Source: Candidatus Eremiobacteria bacterium (lineage in GTDB: Bacteria > Vulcanimicrobiota > Vulcanimicrobiia > Vulcanimicrobiales > Vulcanimicrobiaceae). From it: a stretch of 64,000 nt of DNA. Shown here one piece after another: positions 1 through 50,499 of this stretch. Every line of letters begins with the position of its first letter. Position 1 is the first letter of the stretch. The position numbers were made by a program, and so were the translations under genes. The stretch covers positions 672,001 through 736,000 of the forward strand of contig CAVTRC010000001.1 of assembly GCA_963737065.1 (NCBI GenBank), in the 5' to 3' direction. The notes under the pieces are model-generated. The model worked only from the letters and a program-made list of their open reading frames with translations, was not told the DNA's origin and did no database searches.

Positions 1-435
1 TGCACCGAAGCTTTGCTCAACGCCGCGCTTCTCGGCGTGCACGGCACGCCCGTAGCAATGGTCACCGGCGACCGCGCGCTCGTCGAAACGACGCTTGCCG
101 ATCTGCCGTGGGCGACGGGCGTGATCGTGAAAGAGTCGATCGGATACTACGCCGCAAACTCGCTCACGCCGCAAGCAGCCTGCGATGCAATTCGTTCGGG
201 TGCGCGCGAAGCGATTCAATCCGCGTCGCGCGCGAAACCATTCACGTTTGAGCCGCCGGTCGAGCTCGTGATCGAGACGGCCGGCGTCGAACACGCCGAC
301 TTCATCGAGTTGCTTCCGCGTTTCGAACGCACCGGGGGACGCAGCGTAAGATTCGCAAGCGACGATTATGCAACGGCGTTCAACGCCTTTCTCGTTGCGA
401 TGCGTCTCGGTGGCGCGGCCAATCTACCGGCATGA
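1..435 (+). CDS. dppA: M55 family D-aminopeptidase (DppA-like), 5'-truncated by window edge
   Basis: C-terminal half closely resembles the next gene (LNAALLG..GTPVAMVTGD, IVKESIG); stop overlaps next start (ATGA at 432-435). Confidence 0.85.
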   Translation, partial: CTEALLNAALLGVHGTPVAMVTGDRALVETTLADLPWATGVIVKESIGYYAANSLTPQAACDAIRSGAREAIQSASRAKPFTFEPPVELVIETAGVEHADFIELLPRFERTGGRSVRFASDDYATAFNAFLVAMRLGGAANLPA

Positions 436-1256
436 AACTGTACATTTCGAGCGACATGGAAGGCGTTGCGGGCGTAACCGCGTGGCAGCAAGTCGATGCC
501 CGTACGCCGCACCCCGAGTATCACATGTACAAGCAGCACTACACACGCGAGGTTGCAGCGGCGGTGCGCGGCGCGCAACGCAGCGGCGCGTCCGACGTGA
601 CGATCAACGATTCGCATGGTCCGATGCGAAACTTCGTCTTCGAAGAATTGCCCCGCGACGTTCGCGTCATCTTCGGAAACCGCAAACCATACTCGATGGT
701 GCAAGATTGCGACGGCGGATACGCAGGCGCGTTCTTCATCGGCTATCACGGCGGCATCGGTGACGCCGACGCCGTCCTCTGCCATACGTACACGCCGTCG
801 GTCATCTACGAGACGCGGCTCAATGGCATGATATGCAGTGAAGCAACGCTGAACGCGGCGGTCCTCGGGTATCACGGCGTCCCGTTGCTCTACGTCACGG
901 GCGACCGCACGACCGTTGACGGCGTGCAACGGCAGATGCCCTGGGTGCGCGGCACGATCGTGAAAGAGTCCATCGGCAACTTTGGCGCGAATACGATGTC
1001 GCCCGCTGCAGCCCAGCGTGCGATCGAAGAGGCCGCGGCTGCGGCCTTTGCCGCACGCGCCGACGCCGAACCATTCATCATCGAATCGCCGATCGCGCTC
1101 GAAATTACGCTCGCAAAAGTGGAGCAGGCGGATTATGTCGCAATGATCCCCGGATTTGACCGAACCGGTCCGCGCGCGGTTCGCTTTGTCGATGAAGACA
1201 TGCTGACGATTTTCAAAGCGTTCGTCGCGGTCTTCCGGCTCGGCATGATCGCATAA
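432..1256 (+). CDS. dppA: M55 family D-aminopeptidase DppA
   Basis: N-terminal MKLYISSDMEGVAGV, INDSHG, IGYHG and HT metal-binding motifs typical of DppA. Confidence 0.92.
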   Translation: MKLYISSDMEGVAGVTAWQQVDARTPHPEYHMYKQHYTREVAAAVRGAQRSGASDVTINDSHGPMRNFVFEELPRDVRVIFGNRKPYSMVQDCDGGYAGAFFIGYHGGIGDADAVLCHTYTPSVIYETRLNGMICSEATLNAAVLGYHGVPLLYVTGDRTTVDGVQRQMPWVRGTIVKESIGNFGANTMSPAAAQRAIEEAAAAAFAARADAEPFIIESPIALEITLAKVEQADYVAMIPGFDRTGPRAVRFVDEDMLTIFKAFVAVFRLGMIA

Positions 1257-2840: not shown

Positions 2841-3647
2841 GTGATCCAAGAACCCGATCCGGCCGAACCGGAAAAGAAACCGGTGGACGATCCCGCGCAG
2901 AAGACCACGCGCCGTGGCGGAATCGGCGCGCTCGTTGCAGCGATCGCCGTCGCCGCGACCAAGTTCGCGCTCGTCCTCAAACTGTTGCTGCCGAGTTGGA
3001 CGTTTTTGCTCTCGCTCGTTTTCTACGTGGCGTTTTTCGGGTGGCGCCTCGGGATTGTGATTCTGCTTGCGCTCGCCGCGCACGAGCTGGGTCACTACTT
3101 TGCGTATCGCGCGTACGGACTTGCGGCGCGTCTGCCGGTGTTCGTTCCACTGTTGGGCGCGTACACGCGCGGTGCGCTTGCGCCGAATCTGGAAGACGAC
3201 GCATACATCGCCCTGGCCGGACCGCTGACGGGCCTCGCGCTTGCGGCCGCGTGCTACGGCGTCGGCGTCGCGACGGGCGACCGCTTTTGGATTGCGTGCG
3301 CCGAGGTGTCGGCGTTTTTGAATCTCTTCAATATGATTCCGGTGCTGCCGTTCGACGGCGGTCGCGTCATCGGCGCTGTCTGGCCTCCGTTATGGGTTGT
3401 CGGCGTCATCGTTTTTCTCGCGGCCGCGGTATGGCTTCACGTACCGATCGTGCTCGTCGTTCTCATCGCGCTGCTCGGCGTACCGGCAATGTTTGCGTCG
3501 TTCCGCGGAACGCCGGATCCTCGCGCCGCCGCGATGACGAACGCCGCGCGTGCACGCGTCGGATTCTGGTACGTGGCGACATCGCTCGCGCTCATCGTGC
3601 TCGTCGGCCAAGCGCATACCGTACTTCCGTCGAATACCGGAGTATGA
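2841..3647 (+). CDS. Site-2 protease (M50 family membrane metalloprotease)
   Basis: HELGH, ALAGP and NLFNMIPVLPFDGGR motifs; several TM segments; GTG start inferred. Confidence 0.9.
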   Translation: MIQEPDPAEPEKKPVDDPAQKTTRRGGIGALVAAIAVAATKFALVLKLLLPSWTFLLSLVFYVAFFGWRLGIVILLALAAHELGHYFAYRAYGLAARLPVFVPLLGAYTRGALAPNLEDDAYIALAGPLTGLALAAACYGVGVATGDRFWIACAEVSAFLNLFNMIPVLPFDGGRVIGAVWPPLWVVGVIVFLAAAVWLHVPIVLVVLIALLGVPAMFASFRGTPDPRAAAMTNAARARVGFWYVATSLALIVLVGQAHTVLPSNTGV

Positions 3648-4213
3648 ACGAAGGCTCGACCCCCGATTTCGCGATGCAGCGGGCCGTCGAAATTCTTGCG
3701 AACATCTACGAGCGCGGGCAAAAGCAGAACGACGTTCCACCGCCGCCCGCCGACAAACCGATCGTCCTCTTCAGCGAAACGATCGCGCTCGACGTCGCGC
3801 GCACGCAACGCCCCGACGTCGAACGCGCGCTCGGCAGTGCATTCGCGTATCCCGCGCGCGGCTGGCACACATACTGCGTTCGCGGCCCGGACGGCGCACG
3901 GCTCTTCGCAAGCCTCTTTTACAGTGAGAGCACGCTGATTGCAGCCGAATTATACGTCCCGAAGGTCGATCGTGCACCGAAGCTCGCGCCGCGCGATGTA
4001 ACGTTTCGTTTCGTTCCCGGCGAAATCACCGTGGGAAAACCCATTACGACGCTCCCAAAACACTTCGCACGGATCTCCGCGCTCGCAGAGAAGTTCGGCG
4101 CCTACGCCGAGATGTTCGGCGCACGTTTTCCCGGCGGCTCCGCATATGCAATGGGCAACGGCGGCACGATCGAGCGATTGGCGATCTACGCGCTGCGCGC
4201 TAGCGAACCTTAG
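3644..4213 (+). CDS. Hypothetical protein (189 aa)
   Basis: ATGA overlap with upstream stop and GGAG upstream; abuts next gene; protein-like composition. Confidence 0.7.
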   Translation: MNEGSTPDFAMQRAVEILANIYERGQKQNDVPPPPADKPIVLFSETIALDVARTQRPDVERALGSAFAYPARGWHTYCVRGPDGARLFASLFYSESTLIAAELYVPKVDRAPKLAPRDVTFRFVPGEITVGKPITTLPKHFARISALAEKFGAYAEMFGARFPGGSAYAMGNGGTIERLAIYALRASEP

Positions 4214-5608
4214 GTGCAGCGCCGACGCGTTTGCGCCATCGTCGCGGCGGTCCTGGTTGCGATTGCGCTTCTTGTGACGCGGCCGCCGGGCGAACCCGGC
4301 GTAACGTTGCGCGACTTCGAAGCGTACTACACCGCGGGAGCGACGTGGGCCGCACACGGCGATCCGTATTCGCTTGCGATCTGGAGTGCGCAGTCGCACA
4401 TTCCGGGCGTGATTGCAGCACGATACGAAGTGCTCCCGTTCGTCGGTGTGCCGGCGACGTTGCCGCTCTGGTCGCTCTTCGCGCGGCTCCCGTACCAATC
4501 GGCGACGGTCGTGTGGAGCGTGGTGCTGGGCTGCGCGCTTGCAACATTCGTCATCGGGACGGCACGGCTCGTACGCCTCTCGCCGATGCAGACGACACTG
4601 GCGGCGATCGCGGCGCTGGCATTCGTGCCGATCACGAGCAACTTCGGTCTCGGGCAAGCCGCACTGCCTGCCTATGCGTGTGCCGTTATTGCGCTCGTGA
4701 CGCGGCCGGTCGTTGCATCGCTCGCCGTTGCGCTGAGCGCGATCCAACCGAATGTAGCGCTTGGCCTCGCGGCAATGGCGAGATCCAAACGCGCGGCCCG
4801 CGCGCTTGCGGCCGGTCTGATAATCGCGTACGGCGCGGGCGCATTCGCAGACGGTGCCGCCTGGCCTGCGCGATATCTCGCAACGCTCGCCGCGCATGGC
4901 GCAGCCGAACGGTTCGCTTCGATTCAGTACACGCCCGCCGCCGTACTCTATGGGTTCGGCGTGCCGCACGCGGCCGCGCAAGCGCTCGCGATCCTCGTCG
5001 GCGTCGCCGCATTCATCTTCGCGATCCGCGGCGCGCTCACCGCACGCAACGTCGCGCACCGCTTCGCGATTCTCTGCTGTGCGATTCCCTTCGTCGCGGG
5101 GTTCTTTCACGAGCATGATTTCGTTGCGCTCTTCGTCCCGGCGATCGTTGCGCTCACATATGCGCGGAATTCAATACTTGCCGTCGTCGCAACGGTGTGC
5201 GTCGGAGTGAATTGGCTTGACTTCGCGCAGCAACCGCAAGCACTGCCGCAGGACATCGTTCTCGCCGCCGGTCTCTTCGTTGCCGCGATCGGATTCGGGC
5301 GTTCCCGCGTCTCGCTCTTGGTCGCGATCCCGGTGACCGGCGCGATTGTGCTCGGCGCCTGGATCGGCCACGCGCATCCGCTTGCGATTTGGCCGAACGA
5401 TATGCAGGGCGCCGCGCATGGCGCGACTGTTGCGGACGTCTGGAAAAACGAACAGCTGAAGACCGGCCTTTTGCGCCCCGATGCTGCAGCCGCTGCGCTT
5501 CGAAGCTTCGCGCTGCTCGGCAGTGCGCTACTCTTTTATCTGGTCTTAAATGTCGACGTCCATCATATTGTCGAACGGCGTGACACCGTTGGGACGGAAG
5601 TCCCGTAG
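4214..5608 (+). CDS. GT87/DUF2029-like polytopic membrane glycosyltransferase
   Basis: RDFEAYYTAG..W..GDPY after first TM, NFGLGQ, HEHDF, many TM helices. Confidence 0.75.
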   Translation: MQRRRVCAIVAAVLVAIALLVTRPPGEPGVTLRDFEAYYTAGATWAAHGDPYSLAIWSAQSHIPGVIAARYEVLPFVGVPATLPLWSLFARLPYQSATVVWSVVLGCALATFVIGTARLVRLSPMQTTLAAIAALAFVPITSNFGLGQAALPAYACAVIALVTRPVVASLAVALSAIQPNVALGLAAMARSKRAARALAAGLIIAYGAGAFADGAAWPARYLATLAAHGAAERFASIQYTPAAVLYGFGVPHAAAQALAILVGVAAFIFAIRGALTARNVAHRFAILCCAIPFVAGFFHEHDFVALFVPAIVALTYARNSILAVVATVCVGVNWLDFAQQPQALPQDIVLAAGLFVAAIGFGRSRVSLLVAIPVTGAIVLGAWIGHAHPLAIWPNDMQGAAHGATVADVWKNEQLKTGLLRPDAAAAALRSFALLGSALLFYLVLNVDVHHIVERRDTVGTEVP

Positions 5609-31402: not shown

Positions 31403-31969
31403 ATGAGCAAAAGTAAGTCCGGCAAGCGCGGCAAAGTCACGACCCGCAAGACTGTGGGTCGAAAGGCCAACGTCTACACCCACACCGGGCCGCGACGGAT
31501 CGAGGGTCCTGGTATCTCGTTTCCCGTTGTAAAACTGGACGCGCGCCGAATGGCGAGTGCTTTGGAACGCACGTACCGGACTCAGGGCTCGCGCGAGTTG
31601 GTTACAATCAAGGATCTCTTCCAATTGACATCGTCCGAACTCGGCGTGCTATTTGGCAATGTCAGCCGTCAGGCGATTGACCAATGGTTTGAGAATGGTG
31701 TTCCGACGGAACGCGTTGCCGACGTGGATCGCGTAGCCGAAGTCGCGGAGGCTCTCGGACGCACGTTCAAAACGCAGCGTCTGCCTGCGATCGTGCGCGG
31801 CCCGATGGCCGTTTTCGACAATCGAAGCATCTTTGATGTTCTACGCACGGACGGCGTTGGACCGTTGCACGAGTTTTTCCGGCGCTTGGAGGCACTGATC
31901 CCCGGTGCGGAGCCAATCCGCGCGGGAGAATATGCGACAGGGAAGGTCGCGCACGTTGCTTCGGGTTAG
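31403..31969 (+). CDS. Xre/MbcA/ParS-type antitoxin (HTH + C-terminal toxin-binding domain)
   Basis: HTH-like LTSSELGVLFGNVSRQAIDQW; C-terminal IVRGPMAVFDNRSIFDVL; directly upstream of RES gene; alternative ATG at 31394. Confidence 0.7.
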   Translation: MSKSKSGKRGKVTTRKTVGRKANVYTHTGPRRIEGPGISFPVVKLDARRMASALERTYRTQGSRELVTIKDLFQLTSSELGVLFGNVSRQAIDQWFENGVPTERVADVDRVAEVAEALGRTFKTQRLPAIVRGPMAVFDNRSIFDVLRTDGVGPLHEFFRRLEALIPGAEPIRAGEYATGKVAHVASG

Positions 31970-32603
31970 ACGCGGCGGTTCGTACCTTCGTGCCCTTGGA
32001 CCGAGAAGCAGCTGGAGCGGCCGTCCCGATGATACGAGTTACTCGAAATCGAGCGGCGGCCGCTGGAATCCCAAGGGAGAGTTCGGCGCGCTTTACCTGA
32101 GCCGCGGTGCCGACGTTGCGCTTGCGAACGGCATTGAAATCGTCAACTCGATGCTTGCGGGCGTCGCGTCCGTAGCTGATTTAATTGCAGACCCGAGGAC
32201 GATGTTCGAGGTTCAAGAGTTCGCGGTGAGAACGAGCGCGTTTGTCGATGCTGTGACAGCAAAGGGCTGCGCTGCGCTATCGCTTCCGGCTGCTCCCAAG
32301 AAGGGCGTCGGTTATACTAAGACCCGAGCGATTGGTAAGGCTGCGTACGCCGCTGACGAGAACGGTATCGCCTGCGTGTCTGCGGTGAAGAACCACGATG
32401 AGGAGCTCGCGATCTTTGACTCGCATTCACCAACGCTCGCGACGACGCGCGGCGCTCGCGTTACATTCGCCGCATGGACGGCCGCACACGTGTCTACGGC
32501 GCGTGGAACGAGAAAGAAGAAAAAGACGACTCGCCCTGCCGGGAAAGGTACGAGCACAAAATCGACTCGCGGACCCGCGGCGCGGACTAAGAAAAAAAGC
32601 TAG
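31956..32603 (+). CDS. RES domain toxin-like protein with Lys-rich tail
   Basis: YLR, GGRWNPKGEFGALYLS, GIACVSA, LAIF motifs; TTG start after GGAAGG, overlaps antitoxin. Confidence 0.8.
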   Translation: MLRVRRGGSYLRALGPRSSWSGRPDDTSYSKSSGGRWNPKGEFGALYLSRGADVALANGIEIVNSMLAGVASVADLIADPRTMFEVQEFAVRTSAFVDAVTAKGCAALSLPAAPKKGVGYTKTRAIGKAAYAADENGIACVSAVKNHDEELAIFDSHSPTLATTRGARVTFAAWTAAHVSTARGTRKKKKTTRPAGKGTSTKSTRGPAARTKKKS

Positions 32604-45285: not shown

Positions 45286-46038
45286 ATGGGAGCCCGAGCA
45301 CGCGCAGTGGCCGTTTTGGCCGTCCTTTTGGCCGTAGCACCGGCATGCGCGCGAGCCGATGAAACGTACGCCGTAGCGGGGCAAGACGTCTATCGTATCG
45401 GCGATGCCGTTCCAGAAACAAAAATCGCATATACCGGAACGCAACATCTTTCGGTCGCGCGCGACGGCAACGGCGCGCGCTTTGTCGCTGAGGCGACGTA
45501 CACGCGGACGGACGATTCCGGAAAGTCCACCGTGCACGCGCGATTCGTTCAGCAGATGAACCGCGACGGCAGTTTCCAAGATCGCGTCGACGACGATCCG
45601 GACTTTCTAACGATTTTGAACCAGCCGTTTGCGATCCAACTCGATCCGACGACGATGCACGATCTCCAGCGCCTGCACGGGTCGGTTCCCTTCGAAGCAA
45701 CGTCGCCGCTCGGCGGTGCCCGTCTCCACGGGTTTTTGCGGCCGGCGGGCAAAGGACGCATTCGCAACGTGCCGTCCACGGGTGTGCGCTTCACCGCGCA
45801 GGGACCAATGACCGGCTCGCTACCGCAGCACCCGGAAGACCGGCTCAACGGTTCGATTCGGATGGACGGCACGGCGTACTACTCGCAACGCGACTCGATG
45901 CTCGTCGCCCTCGATGCAACGTTGACGATCGAAGGGAAGCTCGCAAATGACGGCACTGCCGTCCCCGTGCGCATCGTCTATCATCGGACGATACGCGCGG
46001 GTCAAGGCAGTGTCAGTTGGTCGGAAGCTAAACGCTAA
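45286..46038 (+). CDS. Secreted hypothetical protein
   Basis: Signal peptide ending ARA-DE; beta-rich mature region. Confidence 0.7.
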   Translation: MGARARAVAVLAVLLAVAPACARADETYAVAGQDVYRIGDAVPETKIAYTGTQHLSVARDGNGARFVAEATYTRTDDSGKSTVHARFVQQMNRDGSFQDRVDDDPDFLTILNQPFAIQLDPTTMHDLQRLHGSVPFEATSPLGGARLHGFLRPAGKGRIRNVPSTGVRFTAQGPMTGSLPQHPEDRLNGSIRMDGTAYYSQRDSMLVALDATLTIEGKLANDGTAVPVRIVYHRTIRAGQGSVSWSEAKR

Positions 46039-46427
46039 AGCGCGCCCACGAGTTGAACTTCGAGCGGATGCCGGAACGGCATTTCGCTCAAATGCGTTAG
46101 TGGCGTAAATGCTAAGTGGTTTTGGTGACAGTCGATCAGCATTTCGATGCCGCGCTTCACGGAGCCCGATTCCTCGACGTACTTTGAGAGCTTCTTCGTG
46201 AAGTAGGTATGCGGATCGTGCAGAACTTTGGCGTAATAGGGGTCGTCGGTTAAGCCTGCAGCGCTAATGCCTTCTTTCGGAACGAGCCAGACGAACCACG
46301 GATCTTGATTGCGACGGTGGCCGATGAGCACGAGGGGTATTGCACGGGCCGAATCGAGATTCGGTAAGAAACTGCACATCGTGTACGCGTCGAATGAAAT
46401 CTCCGTCGGTTCGATCACCTGCTGCAT
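46035..46427 (-). CDS. Hypothetical protein (130 aa), divergent from ECF operon
   Basis: GAGGA RBS before ATG; protein-like composition. Confidence 0.65.
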   Translation of the reverse strand: MQQVIEPTEISFDAYTMCSFLPNLDSARAIPLVLIGHRRNQDPWFVWLVPKEGISAAGLTDDPYYAKVLHDPHTYFTKKLSKYVEESGSVKRGIEMLIDCHQNHLAFTPLTHLSEMPFRHPLEVQLVGAL

Positions 46428-46639
46428 CGGCGTTCCTCGTCTTCATAACGAATGTGTCCGTGTGCCGTAAACAAAAACCGCCGCGTCGCTCGCTGCGACC
46501 GGCGGTTCCTCGAGATGGTGCGTGCGGCACTTCATGTACCATAGCGCGGTGTTCTCGGACGCGCTCACAGCGCCCCTTCCCGCGGAAACATCCTGAGGGC
46601 CTGATGAGTAAAGCAGAAGCAAGAACTTTTAGCGCCGTG

Positions 46640-46665
46640 TGAAACCACGCGCGAGCCGGGAGTTG
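46640..46665 (+). promoter_or_regulatory. Candidate ECF-type autoregulatory promoter
   Basis: TGAAAC-N17-GTT just upstream of the sigma gene, resembling AAC/GTT ECF consensus. Confidence 0.4.
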
Positions 46666-46678
46666 TTTGGTGTGAGGT

Positions 46679-47353
46679 ATGAGCGCGCTCGCACCATTGC
46701 TCCACACGGGAGTATTTGTGCCACCAGCGGTCCAGCAACCGCCGCAACCGCCGTCCGCCCGGAAGGCGGGCGAAGCGGTCCCCAGCGTCGACAATTTCAA
46801 CCGCATCGTCGACGATTATCAGCGGCGCCTCTATGGCTTTGCGCTGCGCATGACCGGCAATCGCGAAGATGCCGAGGAGATCGTGCAGGACGCCTTTGTC
46901 CGCGCCTACCGGGCGCTGGGAAAGATGTCGCTGGAGCAACGTAGCGAGCTGCGCTTGCAGCCATGGCTGTATACGATCACGCTGAACGTCACGCGCAATC
47001 GCCTGCGCAGCAAGCGTCCGGCAAATGTCGCACTCGATGCGCTTGCCGACCCCGACGCGCTGTTGCGCGAATCGAACGAAGGGCCGCCACGACCCGAGAC
47101 CATCGTCGAGCAGAACGCCGAAGTGGCACTGGTCGAAAAAGCGCTGCTTCAACTCCCGATGCACCTTCGTGCAGCGGCGACCTTACGATTCATCGAAGGA
47201 CGCAGCCATCCGGAGATCGCCGAAATTCTCCATCAACCGATTGGAACGGTGAAGTCCCACGTACATCGCGCGGTTCGCATTCTGCGCCGGATTCTCGGCC
47301 CACAGATTGGACGAATCGCACCCGAAGGAGCCGCTCTTCATGCGCTGTCGTGA
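46679..47353 (+). CDS. ECF RNA polymerase sigma-70 factor
   Basis: Region 2 DAEEIVQDAFVRAY, WLYTITLN; region 4 EIAEILHQPIGTVKSHVHRA. Confidence 0.95.
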   Translation: MSALAPLLHTGVFVPPAVQQPPQPPSARKAGEAVPSVDNFNRIVDDYQRRLYGFALRMTGNREDAEEIVQDAFVRAYRALGKMSLEQRSELRLQPWLYTITLNVTRNRLRSKRPANVALDALADPDALLRESNEGPPRPETIVEQNAEVALVEKALLQLPMHLRAAATLRFIEGRSHPEIAEILHQPIGTVKSHVHRAVRILRRILGPQIGRIAPEGAALHALS

Positions 47354-48074
47354 AGTCGAGGAATTATGGGACGAGGTACGCGCCGAATGCAGGGCCTCCG
47401 TCAAAGAAGCCGTCGACGCTCATCTGCGAGCGTGTCCGCCGTGCCAACACCTCTACGAAGAATATGAAGGCATCGCGTATTGCCTGGGGTGTTTGCCGCA
47501 ACCCGATGCGTCGTGCGACTTAGCGAAGAAAGTCGTCGAACATATCGCCGCGATTCGCCGTAAGGATCGCGTAACGCCGATCGTGCTCGCGTCGGTGCAA
47601 ACGCCGATCGGGCGGCTTTATGTGGGATCCAAAGAAGCGCGGATCGCCTATATCGGCGTCGACACCGGTGAGCGGTTTGAAGACGTGCGTTCGCGCATTG
47701 AAGCGCGCTTGCGCCGTCCTGTCATCGCCGGTGAAGCGCCGGCGTGGCTTCGCGAAACGCTGGATCAGTTCTTCAAGACGTGGCGCATCGACGACACGGT
47801 CGTCGACATCGACGATCTCACGCCGTTCGAACAGGCAGCGCTACGCGCCGCAGCAATGATCCCGCCGGGTGAAGTGCGTTCTTATTCGTGGGTTGCCTCG
47901 CAAATCGGCCGTCCGCGTGCCGCGCGCGCCGTCGGGCAGGTAATGGCGCGCAATCCGCTGCCGTTGCTCTTTCCATGTCATCGGGTCGTCGACGCGTCCG
48001 GCGACTTGCACGATTATGGATACGGCTTGGAGATGAAGGCTCGGCTCCTCAAACTGGAAGGCTACAGAGGTTAG
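47340..48074 (+). CDS. Zinc anti-sigma (zf-HC2) domain fused to methylated-DNA--protein-cysteine methyltransferase (Ogt/MGMT)
   Basis: MRCREV..HLRACPPC (Hx3Cx2C); C-terminal IPPGEVRSY, AARAVG, NPLPLLFPCHRVV, KARLLKLEG; AAGGAG RBS; overlaps sigma gene. Confidence 0.92.
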   Translation: MRCREVEELWDEVRAECRASVKEAVDAHLRACPPCQHLYEEYEGIAYCLGCLPQPDASCDLAKKVVEHIAAIRRKDRVTPIVLASVQTPIGRLYVGSKEARIAYIGVDTGERFEDVRSRIEARLRRPVIAGEAPAWLRETLDQFFKTWRIDDTVVDIDDLTPFEQAALRAAAMIPPGEVRSYSWVASQIGRPRAARAVGQVMARNPLPLLFPCHRVVDASGDLHDYGYGLEMKARLLKLEGYRG

Positions 48075-48103
48075 GTCCGGTCACCTCGTAAAACACTACG
48101 AAG

Positions 48104-48823
48104 GTGGCAAAACGTGTCCTCATCGCCGGCTTCGAACCGTTTGGCGGCGAAAAAATCAACCCCGGTGAAATGGTCGCGCGTAGTCTGGAAGGGCGAACGC
48201 TAGCGGGCCGGCCACTCGCCGTGCGCATCATCCCGGTCGAGACCCGTAACGTTCGCGAGCGCTTCGAGCGCGCGCTACTCGAGACCGATCCCGATATCGC
48301 GATCGCGCTCTCTCAATGCGCCGGGCGTACGGCGCTCTCATTGGAGCGCGTGGCGGTGAACGTCCTGGATTTCGAGCACCCCGACAATGTCGGCGTCATG
48401 CGCAAAGCCGATGTCATTTCGCGCGGCGGTGCCGACGCGCGCCTTTCGAATCTGCCATTCGATCGGATCGTCGATGCATGGACCGCGCGCGGCGTTCCGG
48501 GGTACGTCTCGAACTCGGCCGGCACGTTTATCGGAAACCAGGCGCTTTACGAAATGCTCGGCTTGACGCAACATGCGACGCCGCCCGTCGCAAGCGGCGT
48601 GGTCCATTTGCCGTATCTTCCTGCGCAAGCAATTGCGGCCGGAAGCGAATCCAATCCCTCGATGACGCTCGAACTGATGAAGAAGGGCGTTGAAACGCTG
48701 ATTGAAACCATCGTGGCGTGGGTCGAACAGCGGACGCCTGACGCGCCGAACGTCCGCGAACCGGGCAAGTCTGCGACGTGGATCCCGCGCGGTGTACGCG
48801 GTGTAAAGGAAGTAGAACGCTGA
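48104..48823 (+). CDS. pcp: Pyroglutamyl-peptidase I homolog lacking the catalytic Cys
   Basis: VLIAGFEPFGGEKINP, LERVAVN, VHLPY; AGTFIGN where family has AGTFVCN. Confidence 0.85.
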   Translation: MAKRVLIAGFEPFGGEKINPGEMVARSLEGRTLAGRPLAVRIIPVETRNVRERFERALLETDPDIAIALSQCAGRTALSLERVAVNVLDFEHPDNVGVMRKADVISRGGADARLSNLPFDRIVDAWTARGVPGYVSNSAGTFIGNQALYEMLGLTQHATPPVASGVVHLPYLPAQAIAAGSESNPSMTLELMKKGVETLIETIVAWVEQRTPDAPNVREPGKSATWIPRGVRGVKEVER

Positions 48824-50499
48824 GCGACCCACGCCTTTTGGCCATCCCCGATATTCATGGACACGCGAAGGGCGAGCACCGTGCTTTTGCCGAGGAGCGT
48901 CCCATCGCGTATTCACCGCGCATGCTCTTTCTGTGGTTTTATCACGCGTGCCGTCGCAACTCGCCGCGGTACATGATGGTGAGCGACCACGTGAACTATT
49001 TGACGTTTGAAGATCCCGGTGCGGTGCACACCGTGCGGCGCGCGCTCAAACTCGCGCATGCCGGCGACTTATACGGTGCGGCGGAAACAGCGGGCGTCGA
49101 CGTTGCGCATGCCGCGGTCGTAAGCGAAGGTTTGCGCAGGGGCATGCGCTTCTCCATTGGTGCGGAGGTCGACAACGATCCGCGTGCGAGACCCGATGCG
49201 CAGAATATCGTTGATGCAATGCGGCCGGACGGAATCATTCGCTCGGTCCATTTCTTGTCCGTCGATCACCCGGAAAAGGGCGCGGATTTCCAATGGCCCT
49301 ACGATAGCGCAGAGTTTGCCTTTTTGTGGGATCACGTGGGCGTCGAGCGCGCGTGGGAAGTTTATGTCGACCGCCTCGTCGACGATGTGGAGAAACTTCC
49401 CGGCCATGTCGTCGGACACTTCTATAAGCCGGCGATTTTGGGACACTGGCCCGACGACGTGAAGCTGCAGGCGTACGAGGATCGTATGCTCGATGCGGCG
49501 GCGGCGCGCGGCATGGCGGTGGAGATCAATACGCGTCCGCTCTACCGCGAATATTCTGACGAAGACCGCCAAAAGTACATCGACGTCAACAAGCGGCTGA
49601 TGCGCAAGGCGCAGCAAAAGGGTGTCGGCATCGCGATCGGTTCGGATGCGCACAGTCCGAAAGATCAGGCCGGTGCGTTCGAGGTCGTGCTGCAGATGCT
49701 CGACGAATGCGAGATCAACGAGATCGTGTTTCCCGTCAACGGACGGCTCGCGCGCGTTGTGCTGCGCGCAACGCGCGAGCATCTCGAAGCGCAACAACGC
49801 GCGCCCGAACCGTTGCAACCGGGAAGCAGCATCAGCGGTCTCGGGCGCGCGGAACTCGGGCTTCCCGAAGAACCGGAACGTCCGGCGGAAAAACCGCCGC
49901 GTGAACCGGCCGTTGCAAAGACCGCACGAGACACCGGTCCGAAGAAACGCGCGAGCAGTCCGGCACGCACCACGAAGAAGCCGGCCGCCGAAGAGCAGCC
50001 GGCAAAAGCAGCGACGTCGTCGTCGAAACGCAGCGCCGAATCAGCGGCATCCTCAGCGAAAGCGAAGGACACAAAAACCGCCGTAAGACCTGCCCCCGCG
50101 GTAAAGAGAAGCGCGGCTCCCGAGAAAAAGGCATCTGCCGAAAAGAAACCGGCAAAGAAATCACCGAACGCGTCAAAAGCCGCGCCCGCGAAAAAGGCGA
50201 ACGCAAAGAAAGCGAAGGCGCCCGCGAAAAAGACCGCTGCGAAGAAGGCTGTTCCGGCTCCAAAGAAAGCAACGGGCAAAAAAGCGGCGCCGAAGAAGCT
50301 TGCCGCGAAAAAACCCGTGCGACCAAAGAAGTCCCCGGCGAAGCCCGCCGCGAAGCCCGCGGCAAAGCCCGCCGCAAAAGCAGCTGCGAAGAAGGGCACC
50401 GCGAAGAAGCCTTCATCGACCGCAAAACCGGTGAAGAAAGGCTCGAAGCCGTCTAGCAAAGGGACGACGAAGAAAAAATCGACTAACAAGAGACGTTGA
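48820..50499 (+). CDS. PHP-domain phosphoesterase (histidinol-phosphatase-like) with histone-H1-like Lys/Ala/Pro tail
   Basis: DIHGH, SDH, GAEVD, SVH, GH, EIN, GSDAH; about 190-aa AKKP-rich C-terminus; CTGA overlap with pcp stop. Confidence 0.85.
   Translation: MSDPRLLAIPDIHGHAKGEHRAFAEERPIAYSPRMLFLWFYHACRRNSPRYMMVSDHVNYLTFEDPGAVHTVRRALKLAHAGDLYGAAETAGVDVAHAAVVSEGLRRGMRFSIGAEVDNDPRARPDAQNIVDAMRPDGIIRSVHFLSVDHPEKGADFQWPYDSAEFAFLWDHVGVERAWEVYVDRLVDDVEKLPGHVVGHFYKPAILGHWPDDVKLQAYEDRMLDAAAARGMAVEINTRPLYREYSDEDRQKYIDVNKRLMRKAQQKGVGIAIGSDAHSPKDQAGAFEVVLQMLDECEINEIVFPVNGRLARVVLRATREHLEAQQRAPEPLQPGSSISGLGRAELGLPEEPERPAEKPPREPAVAKTARDTGPKKRASSPARTTKKPAAEEQPAKAATSSSKRSAESAASSAKAKDTKTAVRPAPAVKRSAAPEKKASAEKKPAKKSPNASKAAPAKKANAKKAKAPAKKTAAKKAVPAPKKATGKKAAPKKLAAKKPVRPKKSPAKPAAKPAAKPAAKAAAKKGTAKKPSSTAKPVKKGSKPSSKGTTKKKSTNKRR

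Follow-up and report, generated by a model that had tools for sequence, protein, structure and literature searches.

The described systems closest to the one reported here are two groups of sigma factors of the extracytoplasmic function (ECF) type, ECF122 and ECF203, the former of which was reportedly first defined by Huang et al. in 2015. The locus analysed here lies in a 64-kb stretch of DNA (the window), which the source names among its homologues place in the Eremiobacterota, alias Vulcanimicrobiota, and comprises an ECF sigma factor gene overlapping the gene for a protein that combines a putative zinc-containing anti-sigma (ZAS) domain with an O6-alkylguanine-DNA alkyltransferase of the Ogt/MGMT type (the fusion protein). 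Adjacency of sigma and MGMT genes is already in print, solely for Actinobacteria: in the available entries of the supplementary material published by Casas-Pastor and colleagues in 2021 (PMC7826278), ECF122 and ECF203 are 100% actinobacterial, have an O6-methylguanine methyltransferase gene at position +1 and have no anti-sigma factor identified, the neighbourhoods of ECF203 include an Ada zinc domain as well, and CTCAC / CGTCTAC is listed as the promoter of ECF122. The paper's main text does not use these terms for ECF122 and ECF203, and the available part of a review (PMC8999054) lists ECF122 under unknown mechanism. Measured against those entries, the window system is alike in having an MGMT gene at +1 of its ECF sigma gene, and differs in belonging to the Eremiobacterota and in the ZAS domain of its MGMT protein. 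It also differs from the ECF203 neighbourhoods in that the fusion protein lacks an Ada zinc domain, and from the ECF122 promoter in its TGAAAC...GT site. The initial annotation of this DNA had stated that no characterised example of such a protein was known to it, and our full-text literature search agreed in finding no characterised anti-sigma-alkyltransferase, with most subscription journals outside its coverage. A Streptomyces sigma factor in the available part of a preprint (10.1101/247056) proved to be unrelated. In the literature covered, we found no account of a ZAS-bearing form, of its occurrence in further phyla or of the mechanism proposed below.

Two other kinds of regulator provide the remaining points of comparison. 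The first comprises the ZAS anti-sigma factors RsiW, RslA, RsrA and ChrR, which act on SigW, SigL, SigR and RpoE, respectively, and which share with the window protein the C..Hx3Cx2C motif at the start of an N-terminal domain, predicted to be helical in the window protein, and a gene positioned just after that of an ECF sigma factor. Of these, RsiW and RslA are located in the membrane, ChrR possesses a cupin domain and RsrA lacks a second domain, and none of the four is known to include a DNA-repair enzyme; the window protein is soluble and ends in Ogt. The second comprises Ada of Escherichia coli and AdaA/AdaB of Bacillus, in which a methyl-accepting suicide repair protein regulates its own gene, a role that we propose here for the fusion protein, whose C-terminus matches Ada-C. 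Ada works via an AraC-type DNA-binding domain and is activated when its N-terminal zinc site is methylated, whereas a sigma factor would carry the output of the window system. Human MGMT and bacterial Ogt have the same fold and catalytic residues as the window protein, and to our knowledge neither has a regulatory domain or a known sigma partner; MGMT is destabilised and degraded once alkylated.

Table 1. Positions of the sigma operon and its parts in the window.
Feature	Positions	Strand	Details
Promoter-like site of the sigma operon	46640..46667	+	TGAAAC 46640-46645 (-35-like) and GTTGTT 46662-46667 (-10-like)
ECF-type sigma-70 family factor, 224 residues	46679..47353	+	Pfam and NCBIfam matches
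Coupling region	47325..47353	+	Shine-Dalgarno-like AAGGAG 47325-47330, fusion ATG 47340, sigma stop 47351-47353
Fusion protein gene, 244 residues (ZAS-type domain + Ogt/MGMT)	47340..48074, stop codon included	+	Open reading frame analysis
ZAS-type anti-sigma-like domain, residues 1-75	47340..47564	+	C3/H28/C32/C35, four predicted helices
Two-domain O6-alkylguanine-DNA alkyltransferase, residues ~80-244	47565..48074, stop codon included	+	PCHR with Cys213

The first gene of the operon (Table 1) encodes an ECF (group 4) sigma factor, as it is small and has regions 2 and 4 only. Pfam placed Sigma70_r2 at residues 44–113 (1.1e-15) and Sigma70_r4_2 at residues 152–200 (3.4e-12) and gave no match to region 3 in the 224-residue protein, and the NCBIfam sigma70-ECF model TIGR02937 scored 94.9 bits against a cut-off of 42.9. 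SigW was the top-scoring named NCBIfam model, yet it remained under its own cut-off. Ahead of region 2, the sigma factor has an N-terminal extension of ~37 residues (46679–46790, +), the first ~15 of which (MSALAPLL.GV.VP) are kept across loci and the remainder of which are variable. The extension might be a regulatory or degradation tag.

The open reading frame (ORF) of the fusion protein is open from a TTG at 47307, and its ATG at 47340 yields the 244-residue product. This ATG is almost certainly the true start because MRC are the first residues in all 81 orthologues of the protein and an AAGGAG is found 9 nt upstream of this codon. The sigma and fusion genes overlap by 14 nt, with the sigma stop codon inside the fusion gene, from which we infer that they are co-transcribed; the pair probably constitutes a translationally coupled, self-transcribed module. 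The fusion protein is soluble, with a highest 19-residue Kyte-Doolittle mean of 1.04 and no membrane segment. The ORFs, the Pfam and NCBIfam matches, the overlap and the hydropathy values together bear out the description in the initial annotation of an ECF sigma gene overlapping a 244-residue soluble protein with no transmembrane segment.

To define the conservation of this arrangement, one genome per species was scanned and the best 80 of 546 confirmed related stretches were compared. In all 80 loci the sigma gene was directly upstream of the fusion gene and overlapped it to the same extent, its alignment ending 10 nt within the fusion gene in 79 of them and two residues short in the other (L013). 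Across these loci the sigma factor is 74–98% identical to that of the window, and the fusion protein less so (68–86%). In addition, two 461-residue proteins of the same phylum contain sigma, ZAS and MGMT parts in a single ORF. Two further candidates for such single-ORF fusions were rejected: the 425-residue P0263, at first taken as a sigma-anti-sigma fusion of another lineage, turned out to be the same Eremiobacterota locus read in a garbled frame, and P0428 is garbled as well.

The N-terminus of the fusion protein is taken to be a ZAS-type anti-sigma domain, which would bind the sigma factor. The putative ligands C3, H28, C32 and C35 (C..Hx3Cx2C) are invariant in an alignment of 19 diverse full-length relatives, and C3, C32 and C35 are each present in 81/81 Eremiobacterota sequences. 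The additional cysteines of the domain that had been pointed out at the outset also proved to be widely kept in these sequences (C59 in 81/81, C48 in 76/81, C17 in 71/81 and C51 in 70/81). The mean share of the most frequent residue in the Eremiobacterota is 0.81 in the anti-sigma-like domain versus 0.73 in the N-terminal domain of the enzyme, so that the former is as conserved as the latter. Pfam zf-HC2 was found at E ≤ 0.05 in 28 of the 37 members of the family alignment and reached its threshold of 22.2 bits in 9 of 26 distant relatives scanned. The profile built from that 37-member alignment matched the RsiW chain 5wuq_C over residues 1–76 (E 3.2e-7) and RslA (3hug_B) with an E value of 0.0027. 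An AlphaFold model of the full-length fusion protein had a mean predicted local distance difference test (pLDDT) score of 88.5 and a predicted template modelling (pTM) score of 0.70, with helices at residues 3–14, 19–31, 33–50 and 61–74 (pLDDT 80–93) followed by the alkyltransferase fold.

The remainder of the fusion protein is, as far as sequence and fold tell, an intact repair enzyme with predicted transfer activity, in keeping with the complete Ogt/MGMT C-terminus of the initial annotation. Pfam DNA_binding_1 matched residues 162–241 (1.7e-28), the NCBIfam model of E. coli Ogt (PRK10286) spanned residues 85–242, and the match to TIGR00589 was above its cut-off. The 19-member alignment shows no variation at Y182, R196, N205, P212-C213-H214-R215 or E240, where Y182, R196 and N205 represent the tyrosine, arginine finger and asparagine hinge of the alkyltransferase, and Cys213 is present in 81/81 Eremiobacterota sequences. 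The family profile matched Ada-C (1sfe) over residues 76–241 with an E value of 2.1e-38 and the Mycobacterium tuberculosis OGT (4bhb) over residues 81–243. The top Foldseek matches of the model were 4wxd, 4bhb and 1sfe, with a target TM-score of ~0.75 over ~165 residues. These matches agree with the two-domain fold of alkyltransferases, in which a ribonuclease-like N-terminal domain precedes a helix-turn-helix C-terminal one.

A promoter-like site precedes the sigma gene and is shared by nearly all loci in which the upstream region could be compared (the window and 76 loci; four loci were excluded because of a contig end). An exact TGAAAC is present within 70 nt of the sigma start in 76 of these 77 regions, and in 75 of them it lies 37–40 nt ahead of the start codon; its background rate is 0.013 per 70 nt. 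TGAAAC is also the −35 element of SigW. It is followed at +22 to +27 by a conserved G..GGT(C/T), the window version of which is GTTGTT with the conserved GT at 46665–66. The motif TGAAAC-N17-GTT that had been proposed for this site needs amendment in its spacing, as GTT follows after either 16 nt (46662–64) or 19 nt (46665–67); its TGAAAC half stands. A strict TGAAAC-N15-18-GTNGT pattern found the upstream site in 50/76 loci, and since the rest carry variants such as GCGGTC and GGTGTT, the recount was anchored on TGAAAC. Within the 64-kb window the motif has a single occurrence, in front of the operon, as would suit a sigma factor whose main target is that operon, and no second site was consistent across the 80 loci. 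As the site ends ~12 nt before the sigma ATG, the mRNA leader is presumably short or absent; the site would fit autoregulation and a near-leaderless transcript. A search of 45900–48200 against Rfam gave no real match, the only one scoring 16.5 bits against a threshold of 153.

Relatives were sought in 1.84 billion representative proteins, and full-length relatives were found at 29–48% identity. An Ada_Zn_binding methyl-acceptor domain follows the MGMT domain in 15 of the 26 distant relatives scanned, and among the 120 best-matching relatives of P0159 there are 7 with a three-domain form (ZAS-MGMT-Ada zinc), with the named entries in that list belonging to the Chloroflexota. The presence of an Ada zinc domain and MGMT in ZAS relatives means that both methyl-accepting modules of Ada are tied to the anti-sigma domain in the wider family. 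Gene context outside the phylum was seen in a plasmid collection only, in three Actinomycetota records, in which a sigma gene overlaps a gene for an MGMT-Ada-zinc protein by 11 nt in Rubrobacter radiotolerans, 4 nt in Nonomuraea gerenzanensis and 4 nt in a Streptomyces plasmid. The window sigma factor, compared with the ECF groups by identity to these three MGMT-linked sigmas, is 35–37% identical to them and has in common with them the stretch L(Q/R)(L/P)(R/Q)(P/A)WL. Together, the Ada zinc domain in relatives and the actinobacterial sigma-MGMT pairs make an alkylation link more plausible.

The Streptomyces record (L083, positions 2857–4289, from a plasmid of Streptomyces sp. NBC_01022) is distinctive in that its sigma-linked MGMT-Ada-zinc protein is highly divergent, with RAVG replaced and the longest branch in the tree of MGMT domains, and in that a separate ogt gene of the ordinary kind comes after its own gene. 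It looks as if this sigma-linked copy has turned into a dedicated regulator. The tree itself was built from 65 hand-chosen entries out of >400 proteins, most of which were excluded, and with 32 of its 62 inner branches unresolved, it does not permit a decision on a single origin of the sigma-linked or ZAS-bearing forms. Two plain-Ogt entries placed among the Eremiobacterota fusions in the tree, P0131 and P0136, look like truncated gene calls. A tblastn match in Neisseria gonorrhoeae (95% query cover) was rejected as a relative, being an Ogt with a different N-terminal extension encoded beside an AraC-type gene and no sigma gene.

Based on these comparisons, we consider it highly probable that the two genes encode a sigma/anti-sigma pair in which the anti-sigma factor carries Ogt. 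At rest, the ZAS domain would sequester the sigma factor in a 1:1 complex. The Ogt part would then move an alkyl group from O6-alkylguanine to Cys213, and the spent protein would be reshaped or degraded; it is known that alkyltransferases lose stability on being alkylated. The freed sigma factor would transcribe its own operon from the TGAAAC...GT site, by which each used-up enzyme molecule would be replaced, giving a feedback loop that senses consumption. That transfer to Cys213 is the releasing signal is a tentative proposal, somewhat short of an even chance, and the whole chain, from the fusion protein as anti-sigma factor through its suicidal use to release of sigma and renewed transcription of the operon, is put forward with similar caution as possible. 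In this scheme we infer that sigma is bound, what triggers its release, what becomes of the alkylated protein and which genes make up the regulon. The alkylation-sensitive switch proposed in the initial annotation is therefore supported in part, by the anatomy of the fusion protein, its adjacency to the sigma gene, the invariant residues and the promoter-like motif.

Several results weigh against the proposed switch. Some concern the N-terminal domain. The window fusion protein is under the Pfam zf-HC2 gathering score (16.4 versus 22.2 bits, E 0.01), and the NCBIfam anti-sigma model gave an E value of 0.0016, far under its cut-off; the domain call consequently rests on zf-HC2 in relatives, the RsiW profile match and the predicted helices. 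The ZAS/zf-HC2 domain originally described thus stands in its invariant ligands, in relatives that pass zf-HC2 and in the family-profile match to RsiW, but not in the Pfam score of the window protein itself. A profile from the Eremiobacterota N-termini alone was weak, matching RslA with an E value of 0.095 and RsiW with 0.31, and its top match in the PDB was an unrelated chain, 4lhs (E 0.045). Likewise, a model of the isolated N-terminal domain, made from a 23-row Eremiobacterota alignment, was poor (pLDDT 50.6). Others concern the damage signal and its output. The signal for E. coli Ada is methylation of the N-terminal zinc site and not of the O6-alkyltransferase cysteine. Neither Ada_Zn_binding nor an AraC-type helix-turn-helix was found in the window fusion protein by Pfam or NCBIfam, of which the missing Ada zinc domain is the relevant absence here. 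No second promoter site was found in the 64-kb window, and alkA, alkB, tag or other recognisable alkylation-repair genes were not found among 54 further ORFs of the window that were scanned. The comparative evidence has its own limits. All 80 loci come from a single, uncultured phylum and their surroundings are syntenic; their agreement is largely a matter of common descent and does not count as independent evidence. The 461-residue single-ORF proteins may be assembly frameshift errors, or natural fusions. Outside the phylum, the gene contexts seen are those of the three actinobacterial partners, whose N-termini are short and devoid of the Hx3Cx2C motif.

The main rival to alkyl transfer as the trigger is sensing by the zinc-thiolate centre of the ZAS domain itself, comparable to that of RsrA, which senses thiol stress via its ZAS. 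Oxidants, electrophiles or direct S-methylation at a cysteine that binds the zinc would expel the metal and let the sigma factor go, and Ogt would be cargo made at the same time or a tether to DNA. The invariance of the CHCC ligands would suit such a sensor, as would the conservation of C59, C48, C17 and C51, and the Ada_Zn_binding domain in relatives indicates that methyl chemistry at a zinc-thiolate is used in the family. We nevertheless regard this explanation as improbable on balance because it leaves unexplained the invariant Ogt catalytic residues in all relatives, the retention of a fusion over mere co-expression, and the actinobacterial partners that have no ZAS motif. Moreover, the top structural relative by profile is RsiW, whose control is proteolytic rather than redox-based.

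An alternative that dispenses with a damage signal altogether is plain negative feedback, with the sigma factor driving expression of the protein that inhibits it, Ogt kept at a fixed level, and any induction coming about via general turnover of the anti-sigma factor. Such a loop would account for the only promoter-like site found, in the 64-kb window and the 80 loci, being the one that precedes the operon, for the finding of no other repair genes nearby, and for a gene overlap that gives coupled 1:1 synthesis. It is unlikely, however, as a constitutive promoter would be a simpler route to a fixed level, and the keeping of a dedicated sigma factor together with the Ada zinc domains of relatives suggests a regulated input.

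Less likely still is that binding of DNA or of a lesion by the Ogt part, rather than alkyl transfer, reshapes or moves the anti-sigma factor, thereby freeing the sigma factor or delivering it to damaged DNA. The residues for DNA binding (Y182, R196 and N205) are indeed invariant, and the full-length model (pTM 0.70) places all the domains; however, any contact of the DNA-binding face with the anti-sigma-like domain is hypothetical, and a cysteine kept in 81/81 sequences argues that transfer matters. Alkyltransferase-like proteins that merely bind lesions are without that cysteine. Finally, that the two proteins do not interact, the N-terminus being a zinc ribbon-like appendage of an Ogt that happens to share an operon with a sigma factor, would be in line with the sub-threshold zf-HC2 score, the weak narrow profile and isolated-domain model, and a sigma binding that is predicted, but is very improbable given the RsiW match of the family profile over residues 1–76, zf-HC2 in 28/37 family members, the overlap downstream of an ECF sigma gene, which is the standard anti-sigma position, and the recurrence of sigma-MGMT coupling in another phylum.

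The sigma-fusion pair lies in a block of genes that is itself conserved among the Eremiobacterota loci. A gene for a HisJ/PHP-like phosphoesterase (48778–50499, +), whose matches are under the family cut-offs, is located downstream of the fusion gene in 77/80 loci. The encoded protein has a C-terminal tail of ~200 residues rich in Lys, Ala and Pro that resembles histone H1. A gene for pyroglutamyl peptidase I (48104–48823, +) stands between the fusion and PHP-like genes in 37/80 loci, and where it is missing the PHP-like gene follows the fusion gene directly; the peptidase gene is so an insertion/deletion polymorphism inside an otherwise syntenic block. The sigma-fusion pair is intact with or without it. 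The PHP-like gene might be co-transcribed with the sigma operon, and no promoter motif was found ahead of it.

Upstream, a divergent ORF of 130 residues (46035–46427, −) is 71–96% identical in 74/80 loci, and is more conserved than its 250-residue neighbour at 45286–46038. It had no Pfam or NCBIfam match, and a protein-atlas search gave a weak lead to DUF3037 (score 0.92–0.93). On the minus strand at 46467–46507, 40–80 nt upstream of the start of this ORF, there is a strong hairpin, AACCGCCG...CGGCGGTT, followed by UUUUUGUUU. Its flanks are conserved among 67 aligned intergenic regions, its fold has a z-score of −2.99, and it had no match in Rfam. The hairpin looks like an intrinsic terminator or a leader attenuator before a gene. 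Elsewhere in the window, an ORF at 31905–32603 (+) has a RES domain (3.7e-14) and overlaps an upstream ORF of 266 residues without a family match; the two are possibly a RES-type toxin-antitoxin pair. Two adjoining ORFs at 13–1256 (+) both match the M55 D-aminopeptidase family; the first, which extends from the border of the window, spans no more than the C-terminal half of that model.

Potentially, the proteins described here represent a family of soluble anti-sigma factors with the general form [ZAS]-MGMT-[Ada zinc], present in the Eremiobacterota, in the Chloroflexota and, without ZAS, in the Actinomycetota, that serves an Ada-independent adaptive response in which the suicide repair enzyme itself acts as anti-sigma factor, one transfer consumes one inhibitor and frees one sigma factor, and repaired lesions are thereby counted and the enzyme replenished in proportion. 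At this breadth the proposal is a doubtful one. It does supply a concrete, testable mechanism for two ECF groups listed with unknown regulation, and culturable relatives in Streptomyces and Rubrobacter make such a test practical; the module might also find use as a small reporter of damage or as a genetic switch that limits itself. If the proposal is true, a suicide anti-sigma factor that counts lesions would also account for ECF122 and ECF203 being listed without an anti-sigma factor and with an unknown mechanism. Covalent self-inactivation of a repair enzyme would then be a new type of input to ECF sigma factors, and bacteria would have a second solution to the adaptive response to alkylation beside Ada and unrelated to it.

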